Source: Candidatus Altiarchaeota archaeon
GTDB lineage: Archaea > Altiarchaeota > Altiarchaeia > IMC4 > SCGC-AAA252-I15
Direction of reading: 5' to 3'
Assembly (NCBI GenBank): GCA_043804895.1
Contig: JAZDIN010000062.1
Location: 1 to 29,424, forward strand
DNA: 29,424 nt
Under the pieces are notes generated by a model that searched no databases, was not told the origin of the DNA, and saw only the letters and a list, made by a program, of their open reading frames with translations. The translations under genes were made by a program, and so were the position numbers. Positions 1,195-29,044 of the stretch are shown here, one piece after another (the first letter of the stretch is position 1; each line of letters opens with the position of its first letter).

Positions 1195-1623
1195 TTAAGC
1201 GTATTCTGTTAGGTATATTGTGCCGTTGACGTTTTCCACGTTGATGGTGCCCGGCGTCAGCGCCATTGCCTCCCCCATGTCGCCGATATCTGAGGTCATG
1301 AACTTCCACTCGAACTCCCGGTCATATGGTGTCACATTCACTATGACAATCCTAGGCCTGACGAACACGGTATACTGGACTCCGCCTACAAGCTTCTTGG
1401 GCAAGGTGACATTCATGTCAGTCCCATCCCCTGCAATATAGACGTAGTCTATTCCGTGCGCAAGCTTCTGGGCAGCATCCTGCGCGTCCAAAGACCATAT
1501 GACCTGGGCGGTTATCCGCCGCTCATTCGCTATGAAATTCAACGTAATGAGGAATATCAGCGACACTATCGCTAGGGAGGCTATGAACTCGACCGTGACC
1601 TGCGCTCTTTTGCTCTTCAACAT
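1195..1623 (-). CDS. Type IV pilin-like protein (class III signal peptide)
   Basis: MLKSKRA|QVTVEFIASLAIVSLIFL: basic leader, Q+1/E+5, hydrophobic helix; 142 aa; overlaps its neighbour, consistent with an operon. Confidence 0.85.
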   Translation of the reverse strand: MLKSKRAQVTVEFIASLAIVSLIFLITLNFIANERRITAQVIWSLDAQDAAQKLAHGIDYVYIAGDGTDMNVTLPKKLVGGVQYTVFVRPRIVIVNVTPYDREFEWKFMTSDIGDMGEAMALTPGTINVENVNGTIYLTEYA

Positions 1624-2045
1624 GAGCCACTGCTCCTACTAATGCTCACATAAGTGCCGGTGTAGTTTACGTCGATGCAGTAACTGCCCGCGCGAGAAGG
1701 TAAGCTGCCAGTCAGGTTAGCGTCTGTGTAAACGTCATAATACTCCTCGTTGCCGTTGACGTAGACCACAGCTTGGATCTGGCCCCGCCCAGAGGATAGC
1801 GTGTTTATGGTGAAGTTGGAGGAGTGAGGTATCGTGACGTGGAGGCGGGTCTGGGCATCCTTGCCTTGGCTGTAGACGAAGTCGACTGAGTTTTTGAGGT
1901 TGTTTAATGTTGACTTCACCTGCCCCACCTGGACGTTGTTTTTGAAGAAGCTATAGTTTTCCTGGTTGAATGACAGCATAAGCGCTAGGATGACTAGGGC
2001 CATGGCAAGTATCACCATCCACTCCACGACAGCCTGTCCCCTCAT
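1617..2045 (-). CDS. Type IV pilin-like protein (class III signal peptide)
   Basis: MRG|QAVVEWMVILAMALVIL: Q+1/E+5 motif, hydrophobic helix; C-terminal Cys pair; 4 N-glycosylation sequons. Confidence 0.88.
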   Translation of the reverse strand: MRGQAVVEWMVILAMALVILALMLSFNQENYSFFKNNVQVGQVKSTLNNLKNSVDFVYSQGKDAQTRLHVTIPHSSNFTINTLSSGRGQIQAVVYVNGNEEYYDVYTDANLTGSLPSRAGSYCIDVNYTGTYVSISRSSGSC

Positions 2046-2205
2046 ATCAAAGACCAGCGGCTAAAGCCGCTGGTTTGGTGTGGGCTAGCGCTTTGCGCTA
2101 GCACACGTGTCGGAGGCAACATGCCTCCGTCACATACGCCGGAACTGCCCAGTCGAGTGGAGTCTATGTGACTGTCCCCTGGAAGGGACAGTTCCGAGCG
2201 TATGA
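2044..2205 (+). mobile_element. Composite palindromic repeat element, copy A (non-autonomous, IS200/IS605/PATE-like), intergenic
   Basis: Hairpins ACCAGCGGC-taaa-GCCGCTGGT, GCTAGCGC-ttt-GCGCTAGC, CGGAGGCA-aca-TGCCTCCG and CATACGC-CGGAACTG...CAGTTCCG-a-GCGTATG. 2044-2077 and 2134-2205 match the reverse complement of 28158-28265 (31/34 and about 66/74 nt by hand alignment). Confidence 0.75.
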
Positions 2206-4188: not shown

Positions 4189-5844
4189 ATGTCAGACGAG
4201 AAGGAGTTTCAGGAGGCGCAGGCCAGAAACCCACACCTAAAGGAGTATTTAGCCACGAAGGGTCTTGAGAAGCCGGAGTTCTACGTCCAGTTGGACAGGA
4301 GCCTGAAGGATAACGAGTTCCCGAACATTATGTACCCAGTCGGGGACCCCATCTTCATACACATACTCAGAAAGCCGGGGGAGAACGAAATCCAGTACAT
4401 AGCAGTTGAGCCTCAGATGACGCCACGCGAGACCGAGATGTTCAACAAGATATCGGACCAGCTCATCAAGATAGCGCACAGCATGGACACGAGCGACACG
4501 ACGGAGGACCTAAGCGACATACTCGTGAAGCTGATGAACGACCTGGTCACGATAGACGGGAGGGAGATAAGTAGCACAGGCATGAAAAAAGGGACCATAG
4601 AGAGCCTGATGGTGAAGTTGAGCGGCGTCAAGAAGATAAACCTGACGCAATCAGAGTACGAAAAACTGAAGTACTTCCTCATAAGAGAGAGGGTCGGGTA
4701 CGGTATACTGGAGCCGCTCCTGAGGGACCCTTACATAGAGGACATACACTGCATTGGAGTAGCCAGAGTCTATACAATCCACAAGATATTCGAGATGGTT
4801 GCGACGAGCATCATATTCAACACAGACCTGCAGCTCGACAAATACGTCTTCGACTCGAGCGAACGCGTCGAGAGGCCGGTGAGCGAAGCCCAACCGGTGG
4901 TCGACGCCATAATGCCAGACGGCTCAAGGGTCAACTTCATATACGGCAGGGAGGTCAGCCTCGAAGGCTCCAGCTTCACCATACGTAAGTTCAGCAAAGT
5001 CCCGATAAGTGTCACACAACTCGTGAACTGGCACACGTTCCCTCCGGAACTCGCGGCCTACTTGTGGCTGTGCCTTGAGAACGGGATGAGCATTTTCATA
5101 TGCGGGGAAACCGCATCAGGGAAGACAACTACATTGAACGCAATCAGCACATTCATCAAGCCGAACGCGAAGATATACAGCGTAGAAAACACGCCAGAAG
5201 TCACTATGCCCCACCCATGCTGGCAGCACCTGGTAACAAGGGAGTCTGGGAAGGAAACTGACGTGAACATGATGACCCTCCTGGTCGCATCCCTCAGGTC
5301 GAGGCCGAACTACATCATCGTTGGGGAGATTCGTGATAGGGAGGGTAACATCGCGTTCCAGGCCATGCAGACCGGGCACCCTGTAATGAGTACATTCCAC
5401 GCTGGCGACCCCCACAAGATGATACAGAGGATTACGGGTCACCCGATTAACGTACCAATAGCGTCTGTCGACAACCTCAACGTAGTCTTGGTTCAGCAGG
5501 CGGTCTACCTCCACGGCAGGTTCGTGAGGAGGGTGCAAACCGTCACAGAGCTCATAAAATACTACGACGAGCTCGGCAAGGTCGCGACCGCAAACGTCTT
5601 CGAATGGGTTCCAGCGACAGACGAGTTCGGGTTCTTAGGATGGCACAACAGCTACATCCTCGAGGAGAAGATAGCGCGTCAGCTCGGATATAAGGACGTG
5701 AGGGGGATATACGATGAGTTGACCATCCGCACGAAAATAATAAACAAGATGGTAGAAAAGAAGATATTCAACTACTTCGACGTCTGGGAGATTATCAAAA
5801 CCTACTACTACAAGGGTAAGGGGGGTCTTCCCTTCAACATCTAA
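4189..5844 (+). CDS. arlI: Archaellum motor ATPase ArlI/FlaI
   Basis: FlaI-type N-terminus NPHLKEY...YPVGDPIFIHI, DPYIEDIHC, Walker A GETASGKTT, RPNYIIVGEIR, AMQTGH..STFHA. Confidence 0.93.
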   Translation: MSDEKEFQEAQARNPHLKEYLATKGLEKPEFYVQLDRSLKDNEFPNIMYPVGDPIFIHILRKPGENEIQYIAVEPQMTPRETEMFNKISDQLIKIAHSMDTSDTTEDLSDILVKLMNDLVTIDGREISSTGMKKGTIESLMVKLSGVKKINLTQSEYEKLKYFLIRERVGYGILEPLLRDPYIEDIHCIGVARVYTIHKIFEMVATSIIFNTDLQLDKYVFDSSERVERPVSEAQPVVDAIMPDGSRVNFIYGREVSLEGSSFTIRKFSKVPISVTQLVNWHTFPPELAAYLWLCLENGMSIFICGETASGKTTTLNAISTFIKPNAKIYSVENTPEVTMPHPCWQHLVTRESGKETDVNMMTLLVASLRSRPNYIIVGEIRDREGNIAFQAMQTGHPVMSTFHAGDPHKMIQRITGHPINVPIASVDNLNVVLVQQAVYLHGRFVRRVQTVTELIKYYDELGKVATANVFEWVPATDEFGFLGWHNSYILEEKIARQLGYKDVRGIYDELTIRTKIINKMVEKKIFNYFDVWEIIKTYYYKGKGGLPFNI

Positions 5845-21063: not shown

Positions 21064-21499
21064 GACGATCAAGGCAAAAGGCCACATCAACGTCCTATCC
21101 ACCCACAACACAACACTAGAGTTCACGAAGGCGAACCACCTGAGCAAACGCGGAGACTGCATCATCGCAGTAGCGGCCGACAAATCCATGCTAAACCTAT
21201 CTGACGAATTCAAAAAGGCCGTCAGGAACGAGAATGCGAAAGTCGAGATAACAATCGAATGCGGCGGAATCAAAGACACCATCAACGCACACGGCCACCC
21301 AAAACTCACACTCACCCACCCCGCGGATTTCGTCGTGAGAAAAAGCGACTACATCTGCTCCCGAACCCTAGCGATAAAGGCGGACAAAGCCGCATGTGAT
21401 ATAAAAAGAGAATTGGTGGAAGAATTGAAAACTGCTGCTCAGGTAACATTAACCCTTAAAGTAATCAAAAGAAGCTATTTAGAGCAGTGTAAACCGTAA
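21053..21499 (+). CDS. DUF371 family protein
   Basis: I.AKGH.NV.STHNTTLEFTK..HLSKRGDCIIAVAADK, VVRKSDYICSRTLAIKADKAA. Confidence 0.9.
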   Translation: MTTETIKAKGHINVLSTHNTTLEFTKANHLSKRGDCIIAVAADKSMLNLSDEFKKAVRNENAKVEITIECGGIKDTINAHGHPKLTLTHPADFVVRKSDYICSRTLAIKADKAACDIKRELVEELKTAAQVTLTLKVIKRSYLEQCKP

Positions 21500-22367
21500 A
21501 CCATGAAAGTGTTGTTAGTACGAAGACGATGCCTGCAATAGTTGCGTCCACGTGTTGTTTCCCTTGGATTCTGTTAAGGAGATAGAATAACATAACTGCG
21601 ACAATTCCGGGTAGTATACCCACCCAAGTAAAGAGAACTATTGTCATGGAAAACACGCGTAGAAGAGGGTCTAGGAATGACTCAGAGGGGGGGAATATTG
21701 GATAGGAGTCTAAAGGGAGAAAACAGAATAGGCATAATGTAAAGAGGATTATTAAAAATGCCTTTATTAGAAGTCCAGTCTCCTTCAGCCAGGTATTACT
21801 CTCACCCCATAATCTATTAAGGAGTATGGTGAGGATAGTGACAGGTACTGAAAAAAACAGGATAATTAAATATAATAAGGGTAGGGTTGAAATGAAGTCA
21901 TCAATCCTTGTTTCAATCTGTTGCCTCATCTCTTCGTTTTTACACCAGTCATGTTTTCCCCCCTCAAATGGACCCCTTATAGTTCCCTTGTCCGTGCGTT
22001 CTGATATGTTGACCCCGCGGACTTCATAATCAATCTTGACTTCGACGTTGTACAGGAGTCCCGAACACCCTTCCATGCACCCTGTTGCGTTTACTAGGAA
22101 GTTGTCACCAGGATAAACCAGCAGTGGCTCCACATTCCCATAACAGGTTACGCCTTTACCTGATATCTCCACACTTTTAACGTATATGATATTCCCAACT
22201 CCGTTGGTGAAAACCCCTTTAAACTCCCCTGAATACATGCCTGTTGCAGACAACTGCGGCTTGATTTTAGGGAAACCAGTGAAAACCACTGTTTGTCCCG
22301 CACACCAGGCGGAACATAATATAGACAAAATCAGAACTGTTAGGGCAATCTTATAGCGTTGTTTCAT
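21465..22367 (-). CDS. Membrane protein: signal peptide, extracellular GFxKxKPQL domain, about 4 TM helices
   Basis: An about 110-aa domain clearly paralogous to 22476-23888, followed by hydrophobic helices. Confidence 0.8.
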   Translation of the reverse strand: MKQRYKIALTVLILSILCSAWCAGQTVVFTGFPKIKPQLSATGMYSGEFKGVFTNGVGNIIYVKSVEISGKGVTCYGNVEPLLVYPGDNFLVNATGCMEGCSGLLYNVEVKIDYEVRGVNISERTDKGTIRGPFEGGKHDWCKNEEMRQQIETRIDDFISTLPLLYLIILFFSVPVTILTILLNRLWGESNTWLKETGLLIKAFLIILFTLCLFCFLPLDSYPIFPPSESFLDPLLRVFSMTIVLFTWVGILPGIVAVMLFYLLNRIQGKQHVDATIAGIVFVLTTLSWFTVYTALNSFF

Positions 22368-22475: not shown

Positions 22476-23888
22476 CTAATAATTGAACATGAATGAGCTG
22501 AACATAAAAATCAAGTAGAATAGGAGTATTATGCCAAACAGTAGTATCCCCCCGAGCCTTAGAAAGTCTTCAGATATAGTCCGTTGCATATGCCCCCCAC
22601 CGCCCGCGGGCTGTGGGTCTACTCTGCCTTCTTGAGGCTCCTTCGGCTTAGCCTTAATATTCACCTTAAGGAAAACCGCCCCCCCAAGGGTCATAAAGAG
22701 TGCGACTAAAAGTCCTCGGAAATCCAATTCACCAACAGAGTACACTAGAGTGTTCACCCCCCAGATAAAGAATCCAGCAGCCAGTATGAAATAGAGTATG
22801 GCAATGTTCTTTGCGTAGTAGAAGATTTCCGGGGGTTCCCATTCACCAGCACTCTCCGCGAACTTCCTGTTCACTAGGAGATAGGTCACAGCCATTCCGA
22901 TTAGAATCAACACCTCCAAAGTCCAGCCGAACTCTGAAAGCTTAGTTTCAGAAGTAAGCTGTAAAGTTGCCGCTATGGCCCTGAACGGGTAAATGAAAAC
23001 CAAACTAAAGGACAGGAGCGTTATTAACGGCCGTGTCACCGGCACAATCGTTGTTTTCAGCTTATCTTCTCTTCTGATATTGTATTCCGACAACGCGAGC
23101 AACACCACTCCGATAATAAAGTATATCGTCGACTCAATCAACCACCCGTATCTAAGTCTTAACATTATCTCTGGATTGTCTTTTGTGTTGAACAGATGGT
23201 CGAACCCAAAGATGCATATGAATGTTGAGCAAATCAGGAATATGAAAGCATATACCGCCAGCAGTTGTATTGTTGTAGATTTGGTGAACTTATCTAACCG
23301 TGTGTGAACCTCCATTACATAGATGATACTCATTGCTATGACTACTATCCACCATATGCCAAAGTCAAAAGACTTGTGCAGTCCATCAATACCGCCATAA
23401 CCCCAGGAGCTTTCATACCCCCTGGAGCCGCTGTAGGACCCGCTTGAGCCCTCAAACGGGCCTCTTATCGTTCCTGAATCTGTGTGAGATATTGTTTGAC
23501 CGCCAATTTCAGCATCATAGTTTATGGCGACATTTACGTTGTATACACTACCGGAATATCCCTGTATACAATTTTTAGCTCTAACCTGGAAGTTATCGCC
23601 CGGGTTGATTACGCTTGAGGTCAACTCACCATAGCAGGTTACGCCCCCACTGGTTATTTCAACGCTTTTGACGTATATCCTAGCCCCAATCCCATTGGTG
23701 AATACTGCGGTGAATTTCCCGTCATATTCGAGGCCTGTGCCTGCAAGCTGTGGTTTAAGTTTGGCGAAGCCGGTGGATGTTACAGTGCTCCCCCCCATAT
23801 TGAATACGCCAAGCTGCCACGTGAAAAGGCCCATTAGAGACAATATTGCAACAGCAGGGATGAGCCAGGAAGTTTTAGGGTTGGACAT
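22476..23888 (-). CDS. Membrane protein: N-terminal anchor, extracellular GFxKxKPQL domain, about 8 TM helices
   Basis: WQLGVFNMGG..TSTGFAKLKPQL...FTNGIG..IYVKSVEI...GDNF...GTIRGPFE, then a polytopic region. Confidence 0.82.
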   Translation of the reverse strand: MSNPKTSWLIPAVAILSLMGLFTWQLGVFNMGGSTVTSTGFAKLKPQLAGTGLEYDGKFTAVFTNGIGARIYVKSVEITSGGVTCYGELTSSVINPGDNFQVRAKNCIQGYSGSVYNVNVAINYDAEIGGQTISHTDSGTIRGPFEGSSGSYSGSRGYESSWGYGGIDGLHKSFDFGIWWIVVIAMSIIYVMEVHTRLDKFTKSTTIQLLAVYAFIFLICSTFICIFGFDHLFNTKDNPEIMLRLRYGWLIESTIYFIIGVVLLALSEYNIRREDKLKTTIVPVTRPLITLLSFSLVFIYPFRAIAATLQLTSETKLSEFGWTLEVLILIGMAVTYLLVNRKFAESAGEWEPPEIFYYAKNIAILYFILAAGFFIWGVNTLVYSVGELDFRGLLVALFMTLGGAVFLKVNIKAKPKEPQEGRVDPQPAGGGGHMQRTISEDFLRLGGILLFGIILLFYLIFMFSSFMFNY

Positions 23889-23940: not shown

Positions 23941-25626
23941 ATGCGCACACTAGACCTCCTAATCGTGCTCGTATCTTTATGGACGCTCCTGCTTGTTCTT
24001 GTAGGCCTTTGGTATCTCTTTGTTACGAATCCTGCAGTGGATGACTCGAACACGTGCGACAAGATACAGAATCCGAAGCAGAGGGAATTATGTTACCCCA
24101 GCAAAAATGTTTCAGTCGATAATAGTGCGGCATGTGATAGGATACAGGACCGGGAAGTTAGTGATAACTGCCATAGACAGGAGGGAGGGGTGTCTAAAAA
24201 CATGTCCGTATGTGATAAGATAGAGAACAGAGTTGTGCGAGAGGGATGTTATTATGAGGTCAGTAGAGCATCGAGTAATTTATCAGCATGTGACAGGATA
24301 CAAGACATATCCCTGAAGGAGTGGTGTTACAACACCTTCGGGGTGAAGTTGAACCGCTCATCAAAAACCGTGGCAGATCAAACATTAGCGGAATGCGACA
24401 GTATATCATCCTCTATTGGAAGGGACAGTTGTTATAAACGGGTTGGAGCGGAATTAAATGACCCGTCAATATGTGATAGAATACAAAACCAGGACCCTAA
24501 GGACGGCTGCTACCATCTGATTGCCTTGGCATTGAAGGATTTAACGCTCTGTGATAGGATACAGAACCAGAAAGCTAAGGATTACTGTTACTATAATTCC
24601 AGAGTGTTGAATGACTCGAGACTATGTGACAGACTGCAAGACGAACATATCCGGCTTGAATGTTACCTTAACGTCGGGGCAAAATCCAATGATCTTTCTA
24701 TTTGTGATAAAGTACTGGCACAGGAGCCTAAAGATGCCTGTTACAACATAATTGGTGCTGCACTGAACGACTCCTCAATATGCGACAGGATACAGGGTCA
24801 AATCCCCCAGAGCGTCTGTTATAGGGAGGTTGGAATATCTCAGGGTAATCTCTCGATTTGTGATAAAATAGAGGAAAAAACGAACAGGAACTCATGCTAT
24901 CTTACCATCACTTCACCATCCAATGACTTGTCGGTATGCGATAAGATACGGGCGCAGGAACCTAAAGATGACTGTTACAAGATAATTGGAACTGCATTGA
25001 ATGACTCTTCAATATGCGATAGGATACAGGGACAATTACCCGGGAGCGTCTGCTATAGGGGTGTTGGCATAGTTACGGGTAACCTCTCCATATGTGACAA
25101 GGCGGAGGAACAATCGAACAGAAACTCGTGTTACTATGAACTTGCTTCATCATCCAATGACTTGTCTGTATGCGATAAGATACAAGAGAAGTACTCCAGA
25201 CAAAGCTGCTACAAGGTTGTTAGCAGTCACTTAAAGGATCTAGCCATATGCGATGGGATAGAATCACAACTTCAAAAGGATGAATGCTATGCCATGGTGG
25301 CGGTGGCCTCAAATGACCCCTCAATATGTGGGCAAATACAAGAATCATCCCACTGGATTGAGACGTGTTATATAGAATTAGCTAAAAAGTCTGCTGAGTT
25401 GTCTATATGCGATAAAATAGAGGGTCAACGGGGTAAGGGTGAGTGTTACACTCATGTTGCCCTGGCTTTAAATGACTCGACCATATGCGACAGGATACAA
25501 TACTCTGGCTGGGATGATGAGTGCTACAGTGGTGTTGCTGTTTCATTAAGGGACGACTCCATATGCGATAAGATAGAGGGACAGATGCAAAAAAAAGGAT
25601 GTTACCAACGGGTTGCATCGTCATGA
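23941..25626 (+). CDS. Membrane-anchored cysteine-rich tandem repeat protein (20 repeats of about 26 aa)
   Basis: N-terminal TM, then 20 units with consensus D(L/S)SICD(K/R)IQ.....D.CY..(V/I)(A/G)...N; 40 Cys by hand count. Confidence 0.9.
   Translation: MRTLDLLIVLVSLWTLLLVLVGLWYLFVTNPAVDDSNTCDKIQNPKQRELCYPSKNVSVDNSAACDRIQDREVSDNCHRQEGGVSKNMSVCDKIENRVVREGCYYEVSRASSNLSACDRIQDISLKEWCYNTFGVKLNRSSKTVADQTLAECDSISSSIGRDSCYKRVGAELNDPSICDRIQNQDPKDGCYHLIALALKDLTLCDRIQNQKAKDYCYYNSRVLNDSRLCDRLQDEHIRLECYLNVGAKSNDLSICDKVLAQEPKDACYNIIGAALNDSSICDRIQGQIPQSVCYREVGISQGNLSICDKIEEKTNRNSCYLTITSPSNDLSVCDKIRAQEPKDDCYKIIGTALNDSSICDRIQGQLPGSVCYRGVGIVTGNLSICDKAEEQSNRNSCYYELASSSNDLSVCDKIQEKYSRQSCYKVVSSHLKDLAICDGIESQLQKDECYAMVAVASNDPSICGQIQESSHWIETCYIELAKKSAELSICDKIEGQRGKGECYTHVALALNDSTICDRIQYSGWDDECYSGVAVSLRDDSICDKIEGQMQKKGCYQRVASS
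24685..25190 (+). repeat. 234-bp (3-unit, 78-aa) internal duplication
   Basis: TCCAATGA recurs at 24685, 24919 and 25153 (234-bp period); repeats 9-11 closely match repeats 12-14. Confidence 0.85.
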
Positions 25627-26770: not shown

Positions 26771-27706
26771 ATGGCCGATTTACGCTGTCCTGTGTGCGGT
26801 AGGCCGTCCTGTGGCCTGTGCGCCGAATGCTACCTCAAGGACCATCCCATAGCAGTCAAGCCTGAACCCTACAAGGAGTGCGGCTGTGGGGGGGTTCTCT
26901 TCAAGGGAAAATGGTTCACTGACAAGGATGAGATGATAAGGCAGCTTGCTGAGAGGAGCATCAGGCCGCCATCCGGTGTGAGAACCAGAATCGAGGGCGT
27001 GAAATCCGAGGAGAAGGCGGGGAAGTTGACAGTCCAAGTTGATGTTGTAGCGACTTGCGAGAAGGCCTCATCAAGGCAGGACATCAGCTTCGACGTCTGG
27101 CCTGAGAGGGTGACGTGCGACACATGCAAGAAGTTGAGTTCAGGATACTATGAGGCTGTGCTCCAGGTGCGGGACAGTGACATAGACCTCAACTTGGACG
27201 GGGACCAGGTCTCCAATGTCGAGAAGGTCCGCGGCGGATTCGACTACTATCTGACTTCTGTGAATTACGCCCGAGAGAAGGTCACTTCACTGTTCAACAA
27301 AGGCTACTTCGTGAAAGACTCATCGAAGCTATTCGGGAGGAAGGGGGATAAGGTCCTCTACCGGCATTATTTCTCGATAAAACACCCGCAGTTCCGTAAG
27401 GGGGACTTCATCGAACACAAGGGCAAACTCCTGCAGGTGAGGGATGTCGGAAGAAGCGTGAAGCTCACGGACGTTGAATCAGGCAAGCATGAGTCAGCGA
27501 CATTGAATCAGCTTGAGGATGCGCCGGTGATAGCGAAATCCCCTGAAGTTAAAACCGCGATAATAACTGAGGTCAGGCCTGATGGAATCCAGATAATGAA
27601 CTCACAGGACTGCAGCATACACGAGCTCCCAAGAAGGGATGGTGTAGAGCAAGGTCAAGAGGTGAAGTACATACACGTAAGGGGCAGACGGTATCTCCTA
27701 TTCTGA
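26771..27706 (+). CDS. nmd3: NMD3 family ribosome biogenesis protein
   Basis: CPVCG..GLCAECY, CGCG....KW, TCDTC...SGYYEAVLQVR, GGFDYYL; true start ATG 26771. Confidence 0.92.
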   Translation: MADLRCPVCGRPSCGLCAECYLKDHPIAVKPEPYKECGCGGVLFKGKWFTDKDEMIRQLAERSIRPPSGVRTRIEGVKSEEKAGKLTVQVDVVATCEKASSRQDISFDVWPERVTCDTCKKLSSGYYEAVLQVRDSDIDLNLDGDQVSNVEKVRGGFDYYLTSVNYAREKVTSLFNKGYFVKDSSKLFGRKGDKVLYRHYFSIKHPQFRKGDFIEHKGKLLQVRDVGRSVKLTDVESGKHESATLNQLEDAPVIAKSPEVKTAIITEVRPDGIQIMNSQDCSIHELPRRDGVEQGQEVKYIHVRGRRYLLF

Positions 27707-29044
27707 AAGAGCAAAACCTAGGCCTAGAAGTTTTGTCTTAAGTTCCTCGACTTCCCTCCCCGATTCGGCTGCAGAATCCATTAGCTTAGCTTCAACATCC
27801 TTGAGGTATTCCATGTCATTTTTCAATGAATGTTCCAGCTGGTGGATGTCGTTTGATATCTTCCCCTCAGCCTCCCTGAGAGGAATCATGCTCATCTCAG
27901 CCTGAACATTTTTCAGCTTCGACGTTAGGCTGGCATGTCTTTTCCTGACGTCATCAGTTAGAATAGAGGAGGCGGCCTCGATTTTCTTAATGGTCTTGCC
28001 TGAGTCCTTGAGTGCTATGGACTCTGATTTGCAGGCATTGGCGAGGCCGCTGAAGATTGCCTCAAAGTCGCTTTCCGTTGAGGTGAGGAAGGCCTCAGCC
28101 GGGTTGTCCTGCAGGGACTTGACAATCTTGGAGTGGGTGTTATCCAGAACAGTCTTCTCATACGCTCGGAAACTGTCCCCTTCAGGGGGCAGTCGCATGG
28201 ACTCCACTCGACTAGGCAGTTTCCGGCGTATCAAACCAGCGGCTTCAGCCGATGGTCGTTGATATTTCCTGAGTGCTGGCTTCAGCGGGCTCAGAAGGGA
28301 GTGGATTGTCGATTCTATCTCCCTGATGTCAGACTCGACAGATTCAATCTCAGAATTGAGTTTCCCGACCTTAACCGCATCCGAGCCATTTTTCAGCCTA
28401 TCAAGCTCCGAAGCCGCAAGTGACAGACTCTTCTTGCTCGCATCGATTGCGCGCTTCAGTGACAATGAATCAACCCTCAGCTTCTCCTGAGAAGCTATGA
28501 CCCCAAGGTAACGGCCGTATTCCTTTTTCAATTCAGTGATTTCTTGGAGGCTTTTGTTTGATGAGGATATTCCATCCAACCTCTCCTTCTCAGCCAGAAG
28601 TCGCTTGCAATTCCCCTGTATCTTTATCATGTCATCCTGGAATGCTATCATCAGGAATTTCCCGTCCCCGAAGTTGACTTTGCCTATAGTGTCGAGGGCC
28701 GCGGCGAGGCGTGCCCTGTATGCCTGAATCTCGTCGAATGCGCTTCCCTTGAAGTCAAGCCCCTCAAGGGCTTTGAGCATCGACTTCGCATAGGATGGCT
28801 TGGCTGTCCTCAGAATCTTGTCATAGCGGGGCTCGATGTCGTTGTAGCCTCGGCCATCCAGGAGCGTCACGTCAGAGCGGATTTTCTGCACAAGCTCGCC
28901 TACTGCCATCAATGCATCTTTGGACTCCTTGACTATTCCTTGAGTTTCATACTTTATCCTCTCGTCAATCCACAGGCCAAGGCCAGATAACTTAATATTT
29001 TCCAGGCTCTTCTTGCCTGTGAAGAGTCTGTCAAAGAATCCCAT
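27698..29044 (-). CDS. Hypothetical coiled-coil protein carrying an in-frame 34-aa palindromic-element insert
   Basis: MGFFDRLF N-terminus, long heptad regions; LRK[YQRPSAEAAGLIRRKLPSRVESMRLPPEGDSFRA]YEK is encoded by repeat copy B. Confidence 0.85.
   Translation of the reverse strand: MGFFDRLFTGKKSLENIKLSGLGLWIDERIKYETQGIVKESKDALMAVGELVQKIRSDVTLLDGRGYNDIEPRYDKILRTAKPSYAKSMLKALEGLDFKGSAFDEIQAYRARLAAALDTIGKVNFGDGKFLMIAFQDDMIKIQGNCKRLLAEKERLDGISSSNKSLQEITELKKEYGRYLGVIASQEKLRVDSLSLKRAIDASKKSLSLAASELDRLKNGSDAVKVGKLNSEIESVESDIREIESTIHSLLSPLKPALRKYQRPSAEAAGLIRRKLPSRVESMRLPPEGDSFRAYEKTVLDNTHSKIVKSLQDNPAEAFLTSTESDFEAIFSGLANACKSESIALKDSGKTIKKIEAASSILTDDVRKRHASLTSKLKNVQAEMSMIPLREAEGKISNDIHQLEHSLKNDMEYLKDVEAKLMDSAAESGREVEELKTKLLGLGFALSE
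28158..28265 (-). mobile_element. Palindromic repeat element, copy B, inserted in frame within a CDS
   Basis: The reverse complement ATATCAACGACCATCGGCTGAAGCCGCTGGTTTG-ATACGCCGGAAACTG...CAGTTTCCGAGCGTATGA matches 2044-2077 plus 2134-2205. Confidence 0.8.

Follow-up and report, generated by a model that had tools for sequence, protein, structure and literature searches.

A palindromic miniature element, probably derived from IS200/IS605-type transposons, inserted in frame in two genes of a Candidatus Altiarchaeota archaeon

The window analyzed here, the whole of a 29,424-nucleotide stretch from a Candidatus Altiarchaeota archaeon (contig JAZDIN010000062.1 of assembly GCA_043804895.1, forward strand), contains two copies of a palindromic miniature element, one of which, copy B, is inserted in frame into a gene for an all-helical coiled-coil protein, and the other, copy A, is intergenic. 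We show that the two copies belong to a family that was mobile in the past and that has a second in-frame copy in a spermidine-synthase-like gene on another contig. The insert is quite probably a non-autonomous derivative of insertion sequences (IS) of the IS200/IS605 type, that is, a palindrome-associated transposable element (PATE), which retained only the two transposon ends and entered two genes as a translated loop. The source assembly, denoted G000, comprises 1.58 Mb in 71 contigs and is 88.7% complete, and the window is its contig C62; the order was sampled through 49 genomes, and the relatives that have to be told apart are labeled G002, G003, G019, G020, G023, G026, G039 and G042.

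The element is modular (Table 1), with a hairpin part, denoted H1, followed by a branched palindrome, module 2, which comes in two subfamilies, Y and P; copy A is the longer of the window copies because of an extra two-hairpin piece, M. An inverted match between two copies had been predicted from the nucleotide sequence alone, and it was recovered as two pairs of arms, one of 34 nt (2044-2077 and 28232-28265; 91% complementary, 31/34) and one of 51 nt (2143-2193 and 28171-28221; 88% complementary). When 2134-2205 is aligned globally with the reverse-complemented 28158-28231, there are six mismatches and two gaps over 74 columns, the same numbers of substitutions and indels that had been counted before. 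The gaps consist in the loss of one A from GGAAACTG and of one T from CAGTTTCC, resulting in GGAACTG/CAGTTCC; as they fall on opposite arms of a stem, they are compensatory, as had been proposed. When compared against the whole genome, the match between the window copies has E values of 7.7e-20 and 8e-7 in blastn and of 4e-25 with a covariance model; the likeness of copies A and B is well above chance. The TAT triplets described as bounding the element are present at both ends of both copies.

As a single strand, the element is predicted to fold with a z-score of -4.3 as RNA and -7.6 as DNA, neither of which was equaled by any of 200 shuffles. The outer stem of module 2 comprises 14 pairs (ATACGCCGGAAACTG.../...CAGTTTCCGaGCGTAT). 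Across 27 pairs and ten copies, standard base pairs occupy 93.3% of the cells, compared to 30-40% when the partners are slid along each other; double-sided changes are found in 10 of the 27 pairs, and the covariation score was reached by none of 500 shuffles. Three double changes in the outer stem distinguish Y from P, and the sequence of the H1 stem is free to vary, with pairing retained. Of the two C/T differences that had been expected to convert G-C pairs to G-U wobbles, one indeed gives a G.T pair, in the inner hairpin of Y, but the other, where copy B has a T in its H1 stem, gives a T.C mismatch. On the strand that corresponds to the sense strand of the transposase gene tnpA (hereafter, the tnpA-sense strand, which is the plus strand of the window for copy B), the element starts with ACGCTCGG... 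and ends with ...GGTCGTTGAT(A). These ends are not reverse complements of each other, and there are no terminal inverted repeats across the element, the palindromes being internal to each end.

The family is not a one-off duplication. A search with nhmmer detected in G000 12 copies of H1, five copies of Y, each preceded by H1, and six strong and two weak copies of P. The combinations H1+Y and H1+P are of equal length and align from end to end, and therefore Y and P represent two subfamilies of one element. The M piece is found at the junction between H1 and module 2 in three copies, namely, copy A of the window, which is of the Y type, and the P-type copies on contigs C3 and C7; hairpins resembling M also occur within longer transposase-less elements in G000. 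The H1-M-Y arrangement may equally well be the older form, with H1-Y as a core-deleted form. A covariance model trained solely on the miniature elements detected the family in 12 of the 49 genomes, representing four of the seven families of the order (BLAST alone, five of the 49).

Beyond the order, hardly any copies were found. Scanning one genome per species with a sequence pattern returned 31 stretches, of which two are true copies (L048 and L049, identical in sequence to copies of G019 and G023, both within the order); among the other 29, L042 was examined and has no hairpin, and the rest, all bacterial records, were taken unexamined as chance matches. A scan of metagenomes with a stricter pattern returned four stretches, three of them true copies, and no autonomous element was found among these. 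No Rfam family matched the window at the gathering score, and the only such match in 77 kb around eight other copies was a tRNA. An orphan 21-nt match in G023 (L027), which sits between dnaG-like and Hef-like genes, proved not to be the end of a transposon.

Past mobility of the element is evident from three pairs of filled and empty sites, in agreement with the original prediction of a mobile element. The first pair is provided by the coiled-coil protein, which is encoded by a gene conserved across the order, with homologs in 34 of the 40 relatives searched. Here the insert corresponds approximately to residues 263-296 in the 451-aa reading of the protein, and the frame is unbroken. Removal of the insert yields LRKYEK, the junction that had been predicted, and the orthologous protein from the same genus (G003, L010) indeed reads LRKYEK where the window protein reads LRKY-(34 aa)-EK. 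The 34-aa segment is missing from all 11 aligned orthologs, which are the 11 best-scoring of the 34 relatives with a match. The second pair involves the other intragenic Y copy, on contig C19, in a gene encoding a spermidine-synthase-like protein of 526 aa. The match to the Pfam spermidine-synthase domain ends at the insert, which separates the conserved Y and D of a (K)YD(V/L)I..D motif; the 34 aa are absent from all 13 aligned homologs, and TATGA is present once at the insertion point in three of the four closest ones. In the third pair, a composite of H1, an M-like piece and P lies directly 5' of the purD ATG in G002 (L119, G002:C243, about 4620-4925), and the syntenic site in G000 (C1:1769-1850) is empty; there, about 33 nt upstream of the ATG, lies the TATA-like TTTTTATC. 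More generally, the P-type copies of G002 occupy sites that are not orthologous to those of the copies in G000. A P copy on contig C24, which is spanned by an open frame, was considered as a third in-frame case but dropped because the upstream part of the frame resembles an antisense frame.

The in-frame habit of the element is accounted for by its reading phases. With TAT read as a codon, three of the four 102-nt copies are open, whereas the other two sense phases contain stops in all four copies. It is the open phase that the two intragenic copies use, at TAT GAG and TAT GAC, and beyond the insert the host open reading frames (ORFs) continue for another 141 and 151 codons. The apparent coding compatibility arises because only open-phase insertions survive. 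The intragenic copies are two of about 19 family loci in G000; in the relatives, five of the 36 copies are spanned by an open frame, with 60 aa or less on one flank, and none of these were counted as intragenic.

The original prediction that the element creates new peptide segments agrees with structural models of both host proteins, obtained with AlphaFold2 from alignments of homologs, in which the insert appears as a low-confidence loop. The C19 enzyme was modeled with a mean predicted local distance difference test (pLDDT) score of 83.8, with the insert, residues 349-382, at about 48-62, between the helix 339-348 and the strand 383-388; the coiled-coil protein was modeled with a mean pLDDT of 87.0, with the insert as coil and the score below 50 at residues 271-288. 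In both models, the host fold is retained, and the inserts have a pLDDT of about 45-64 between confidently modeled elements. Thus modeled, the insert most likely adds a disordered surface loop of 34 residues that is tolerated by the host proteins. A fold search with the model of the coiled-coil host protein retrieved generic coiled coils only, none at E <= 0.001. When the insert peptide was sought among 5.8 billion proteins of 248-790 aa, the window protein alone was returned; the C19 host protein was missed, too, so that this search is a weak one. A word search of sequencing runs pointed to one DNA run with 0.04 of the words, and no RNA run was listed.

An alternative, also raised in the original prediction, is that the insert never reaches the protein, being either removed from the mRNA, for example, as an intron of the bulge-helix-bulge type on which the tRNA splicing endonuclease acts, or excised from the DNA in some cells. 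As RNA, the insert has a strong structure, a short direct repeat lies at its borders, its precise loss would restore the ancestral frame, and elements of the IS200/IS605 type are known to excise precisely. However, the modules pair with themselves in the predicted fold, leaving the two exon-intron junctions unpaired with each other, and for this reason, no bulge-helix-bulge motif can form: the two 3-nt bulges and the 4-bp helix of the archaeal intron are not obtained, and the 5' part of the insert is not complementary to the downstream exon. The flanks of the C19 copy likewise lack complementarity. Furthermore, just one of the sense phases is free of stops, and both intragenic copies use it, which would be unneeded if the insert were removed before translation, and the assembly contains no transposase that could excise it. 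We consider removal of the insert to be improbable.

The link to IS200/IS605-type elements comes from relatives that encode Y1 transposases, as recognized by the Y1_Tnp profile (PF01797). Such genes were detected in 17 of the 49 genomes, in 16 of these above the family cut-off. In G026, all three weak matches of the covariance model lie near Y1_Tnp matches, at distances of 80, 136 and 353 nt and on the strand opposite to tnpA; given that the ten Y1 matches cover well below 1% of this 1.4-Mb genome, three out of three by chance would be very unlikely, by estimate rather than by computation. A search of ten Y1 loci without filters found H1-like hairpins just 3' of tnpA in G026 (E 1.6e-4), G020 (3.3e-3) and G042 (0.013). 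The latter genome contains three families of IS200-type elements (L148-L163), of 563, about 688 and about 732 bp, with six, six and four near-identical copies, respectively, that encode tnpA only. With a slash marking the element boundaries and LE and RE denoting the left and right ends, these families read TTTAT/LE...RE-TTTAT/ and TTCAT/TACAC...GGTTCAT/; that is, a TTTAT or TTCAT target precedes the left end, and a like word closes the right end.

Both ends of the miniature element can be aligned with those of the IS, which bears out the resemblance to IS200/IS605-type end hairpins that had been noted in the original prediction. H1 and the IS right ends have in common, on the tnpA-sense strand, the pattern AATA-stem-CTTYAG-stem-NGTTKAT/, and, accordingly, H1 of copy B, read on the plus strand, resembles the subterminal hairpin of an IS200-type right end together with the terminal TTGAT(A). 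The first ~35 nt of module 2, in the same reading of copy B, align with the IS200-type left ends (TCAT/..CGCA-AGGATACTGCGGGC-TTTA-GCCCGCAG against TCAT/ACGCT-CGGAAACTGTCCCC-TTCA-GGGGGCAG).

Read on the tnpA-sense strand, nine of the 12 copies have YCAT(A) before the left end (the other three have TTAT or TAAT), and the right end closes with TTGAT(A); on the opposite strand, the element lies directly 5' of ATGA in seven of the 12 copies and is preceded by T in 11 of the 12. This placement would account for the target word ATATGA that had been proposed and for the TAT...TAT flanks, one of which would be the target and the other the terminal triplet of the element. The target being the reverse complement of (T)ATGA, copies sit at start codons, at stop/start overlaps and at Tyr-Glu/Asp codons (TAT GAx).

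Other hairpin elements are present in G000. Two transposase-less elements of ~235 nt, on contigs C25 and C45 (Table 1), contain two internal M-like hairpins, an IS200-type left end CAT/TACAAACTCGCAAGGATACTGC... and a right end ...GGTATTTGAT/; their left end matches a model of IS ends from other genomes with E values of 8e-7 and 3e-6, and therefore IS200-type elements were once active in the lineage, although there is no tnpA in the assembly. A second, more numerous hairpin family starts with ATCAACGACCACAGCC... and ends with ...CTATCTTGGAT; its first hairpin has the GGTCGTTGAT tail in common with H1 and resembles IS200-type right ends, and none of its 14 copies is intragenic.

Several observations weigh against the derivation of the insert from IS200/IS605-type elements or against its translation. 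The transposase profiles run on G000, namely, Y1_Tnp, the TnpB profiles Cas12f1-like_TNB (PF07282) and OrfB_IS605 (PF01385), DDE_3 and DDE_Tnp_1, returned no matches; the missing Y1 match does not prove absence because repeated IS elements often drop out of such assemblies. Across the order, Y1 matches do not co-occur with the element, being detected in four of the 12 genomes that have it and in 13 of the 37 that lack it. The likeness of the left ends is short and weaker than that of the right ends. Profile hidden Markov models built from the IS ends alone did not retrieve the H1 and Y copies (E > 0.3), although other hairpin families of G000 were retrieved, and hence the IS link rests on the structure-aware model and on alignments of ~40-55 nt. 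Wobble pairs are ambiguous as to which strand folds, with seven G.T against eight A.C on the strand that has H1 at the left, opposite to the tnpA-sense strand, or one against eight when one doubtful pair is left out. The two intragenic copies differ at eight positions, seven of the differences being nonsynonymous and the differences spread evenly over the codon positions; the peptide is therefore a passenger, with no sign of selection on the peptide itself. Translation of the insert along with the host gene, although most likely, is something that we infer rather than observe. Finally, TAT is found on both flanks in 11 of the 12 copies in G000, an arrangement that, within this genome, is indistinguishable from a 3-bp target duplication.

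Such a duplication would be expected of a classical MITE (miniature inverted-repeat transposable element), mobilized by a DDE transposase, for example, an IS630/Tc1-like one that targets TA, which acts on inverted repeats in duplex DNA and leaves TA or TAT as the target-site duplication. The modules are near-perfect inverted repeats, each with TA/TAT at its borders, neighboring modules have the middle ATA in common, and co-variation of the arms is expected also of terminal repeats bound by one protein. Nevertheless, neither end of the element is an inverted copy of the other, and the flanks are not variable. In the subfamilies of G019, G023 and G039, TAT at one end is matched by TTT at the opposite end, which argues against a duplicated target. 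The H1 stem, which varies freely with pairing kept, is more in line with a hairpin than with a duplex site recognized by its sequence; neither DDE_3 nor DDE_Tnp_1 has a match in G000, and the ends resemble those of elements with Y1 transposases. A MITE of this kind is, in our assessment, quite improbable.

The same resemblance bears on the possibility that the copies are repeats of the kind known as repetitive extragenic palindromes (REPs) or bacterial interspersed mosaic elements (BIMEs), spread by a domesticated, single-copy REP-associated tyrosine transposase (RAYT) rather than by an IS200-type transposase. The hairpin units combine modularly into mosaics of H1, M and Y or P, RAYTs belong, as Y1 enzymes, to the same superfamily, and intragenic REPs are known in bacteria (PMC3733652). 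The GTAG and CGTC tags were not found in the element sequences, though, and the elements are 100-160 nt long with two different ends, not units of 20-40 nt. Neither a Y1 nor a RAYT match was found in G000, and the nearest matches are the ends of IS elements that are present in multiple copies and have defined targets. This origin appears highly improbable.

If the element is indeed an IS200/IS605 derivative, its movement can be envisaged by analogy with IS608 and ISDra2, in which TnpA cuts a folded single strand at the element ends and joins the piece 3' of a short target without duplication. On the plus strand of the window, the layout would comprise the YCAT(A) target, the left end, that is, module 2 with its C-TTCA-G-looped hairpin, and the right end, that is, H1, which ends with TTGAT(A); TTGAT is also the target word of ISDra2. 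A TnpA supplied in trans would cut the folded single strand at both ends, and the excised piece would be pasted 3' of the short target without duplication, so that copies would land immediately 5' of ATG(A). The intragenic survivors would then be transcribed and translated along with the host gene. Both the enzyme and the single-strand mechanism are thus proposed by analogy.

The landing sites of the P copies are of interest in their own right. Seven of the eight stop precisely at a gene's ATG, and the genes 3' of these copies include leuA-like, HicB-like, ftsZ, gatE and pyrophosphatase-like genes and two small ORFs. The P copies have an AT-rich core, with GGAGG within a hairpin upstream of the ATG; the leuA-like gene has a native-looking GGAGGT just before the insertion point, and more than 100 nt now separate this GGAGGT from the ATG. 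On the other side of the element, a start codon is abutted by copy A and by several copies in the relatives. One Y copy (C4:59558-59671; L002:4959-5072) lies in the stop/start overlap of a toxin-antitoxin pair consisting of an MNT nucleotidyltransferase and a HepT-like RNase; the frame of the antitoxin extends 18 codons into the copy, up to a TGA, and the ATG of the toxin is supplied at the edge of the element.

These sites could suggest that the element primarily serves the host in regulation, as a promoter, leader RNA or terminator cassette that selection retains and recombination spreads, with the intragenic copies being accidental. The adjacency of P to the ATG of genes such as leuA-like, gatE, ftsZ and pyrophosphatase-like ones, the GGAGG upstream of the ATG, the low copy number and the patchy distribution are all compatible with such a module, as are the arms of H1 in relatives, which read TATAAA and TTTTTATA, similar to the archaeal TATA-box consensus. 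The adjacency to ATG is already explained by the target being the reverse complement of ATGA, however, and the genes served are unrelated and differ between congeneric species, purD and carA bearing the P copies in the sister species G002 as against the genes listed above for G000. Moreover, Y copies lie within coding sequence and at the toxin-antitoxin junction, and the ends match transposon ends. There is accordingly little probability, in our view, that the family is a host module. More tentatively, and with rather low likelihood, P could be a transposon-borne, portable 5' leader or promoter cassette, a conserved and structured leader of ~105 nt, with TATA-like arms and a GGAGG inside a hairpin, that would replace the native ones of housekeeping genes and rewire expression, with the Y copies following the same docking rule to give rise to new loops.

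Table 1. Positions of the element copies, their modules, the host gene and related hairpin elements (window coordinates unless a contig of G000 is given)
Feature	Position	Strand	Description
Copy B of the miniature element	28160..28264	-	105 nt from TAT (28262-28264) to TAT (28160-28162); net insert 102 nt = 34 codons, in frame; alignment, covariance model E 4e-25
Copy B inserted piece under IS200-type boundaries	28162-28263		
H1 hairpin of copy B	28229..28264	-	TATCAAcg, 9-bp stem, 4-nt loop, stem, tTTGATA; folds, covariation
Module 2 (Y) of copy B	28160..28231	-	14-pair outer stem around two small hairpins (three-way junction); folds, covariation
Copy A of the element	2045..2203	+	159 nt from TAT (2045-2047) to TAT (2201-2203); net insert 156 nt; H1 + M + Y; intergenic
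H1 of copy A	2045..2080	+	left end adjoins CAT (2043-2045), with which the minus-strand ORF 1617-2045 starts
Module M of copy A	2078..2135	+	two hairpins, GCTAGCGC..GCGCTAGC and CGGAGGC..GCCTCCG, that separate H1 from Y
Module 2 (Y) of copy A	2134..2203	+	outer stem one base pair shorter than in copy B
142-aa ORF	1617..2045	-	start codon directly abuts copy A; a case of the element landing at a gene start
Host gene, all-helical coiled-coil protein	27698..29044	-	448 aa from ATG at 29044; TTG-start ORF reaches 29053; conserved across the order
P copies in G000	C4:20663-20776, C3:50412-50580, C7:32879-33097, C35:13931-14042, C38:3429-3539, C24:60863-60977, C10:1093-1180, C47:6031-6084		
Transposase-less elements of ~235 nt in G000	C25:96560-96790, C45:14300-14540	-	
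Second hairpin family in G000, among other sites	C66:3562-3726, C25:21149-21314, C47:14549-14711, C35:28161-28269, C17:6195-6302, C39:1110-1222, C20:35074-35182, C26:23982-24090		

The window has other repetitive features. A 561-aa ORF on the plus strand (23941-25626), with no Pfam match, encodes a Cys-rich repeat protein with repeats of ~78 nt (26 codons) and conserved TGYGA...TGYTAY motifs; these repeats are the families D1-D6 of the repeat search. A run of 9- and 12-nt GTNGTNGTN repeats at 553-654, within the minus-strand ORF 3-1193, is a low-complexity stretch on the coding strand. A direct repeat of 92 nt (22138-22229 and 23629-23720; 72% identity) connects the minus-strand ORFs 21465-22367 and 22476-23888, and its sequence suggests that the two are paralogous.

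Among known elements, the closest counterparts are the PATEs of Haloquadratum walsbyi and Natronomonas, which derive from IS605-type transposons (PMC3119063). PATEs are likewise too short to encode a transposase, lack terminal inverted repeats, have near-terminal palindromes like those of the autonomous IS, and include core-deleted forms and nested small elements or hairpins; they follow a short targeting oligonucleotide without evident duplication, as the present element may also do (PMC3119063). Unlike in that case, the related IS elements found here encode tnpA only, with no tnpB, in 563-732 bp; the host belongs to another archaeal lineage, the element is only 102 nt long, and there are two in-frame copies in intact genes, which the available part of the PATE description does not include (PMC3119063). 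IS608 and ISDra2 similarly have subterminal hairpins at both ends and a right end that closes with a short word comparable to the TTGAT found here, and they insert 3' of a 4-5-nt target without duplication, as the present element may also do (PMC3119063), but the element described here has no transposase gene, and its cleavage and strand specificity would follow these systems by analogy.

The Rickettsia palindromic elements (RPEs) resemble the present family in that they are palindromic repeats found in frame in unrelated conserved genes, encode peptides predicted to lie outside the fold and are absent from orthologs (PMC10969869). There is no sequence relation between the two, however; only two of about 19 copies in G000 are intragenic, there is no sign of peptide selection, and the origin from IS200-type elements can be traced here. 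The MJREs of Methanocaldococcus jannaschii, reportedly described by Suyama et al. in 2005, are also said to be palindromic repeats, some copies of which are compatible with coding. The likeness to RPEs and MJREs would be one of analogy only. Intragenic REPs are, like the inserts studied here, small hairpin repeats tied to Y1-type enzymes and located inside ORFs of known proteins (PMC3733652); in contrast to these, the present element has no GTAG/CGTC tag, two IS-like ends, an archaeal host and no RAYT match.

Candidatus Altiarchaeum hamiconexum has the highest density of MITEs among archaea, according to PMC11602168, and the element lists of that work may already include the family, without a description. 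No description of the family was found in full-text searches on palindromic elements of Altiarchaeota and on in-frame MITEs of archaea. The element represents a new family of a known kind of element, the PATEs, with an in-frame habit similar to that of RPEs.

This family extends PATEs, known from haloarchaea, to another, poorly known and uncultured archaeal lineage, and would show a route from the ends of single-strand transposons to protein sequence. That copies land at gene starts, in the stop/start overlaps of operons and at Tyr-Glu/Asp codons finds a mechanistic explanation in the target, whose reverse complement is (T)ATGA. The two intragenic insertions mark permissive sites in a conserved enzyme with a methyltransferase fold and in a lineage-wide coiled-coil protein, and such inserts distort gene calls, domain matches and alignments of metagenome-assembled genomes. 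If the P copies are indeed portable leaders, they would amount to a rewiring of gene expression in a compact archaeal genome.

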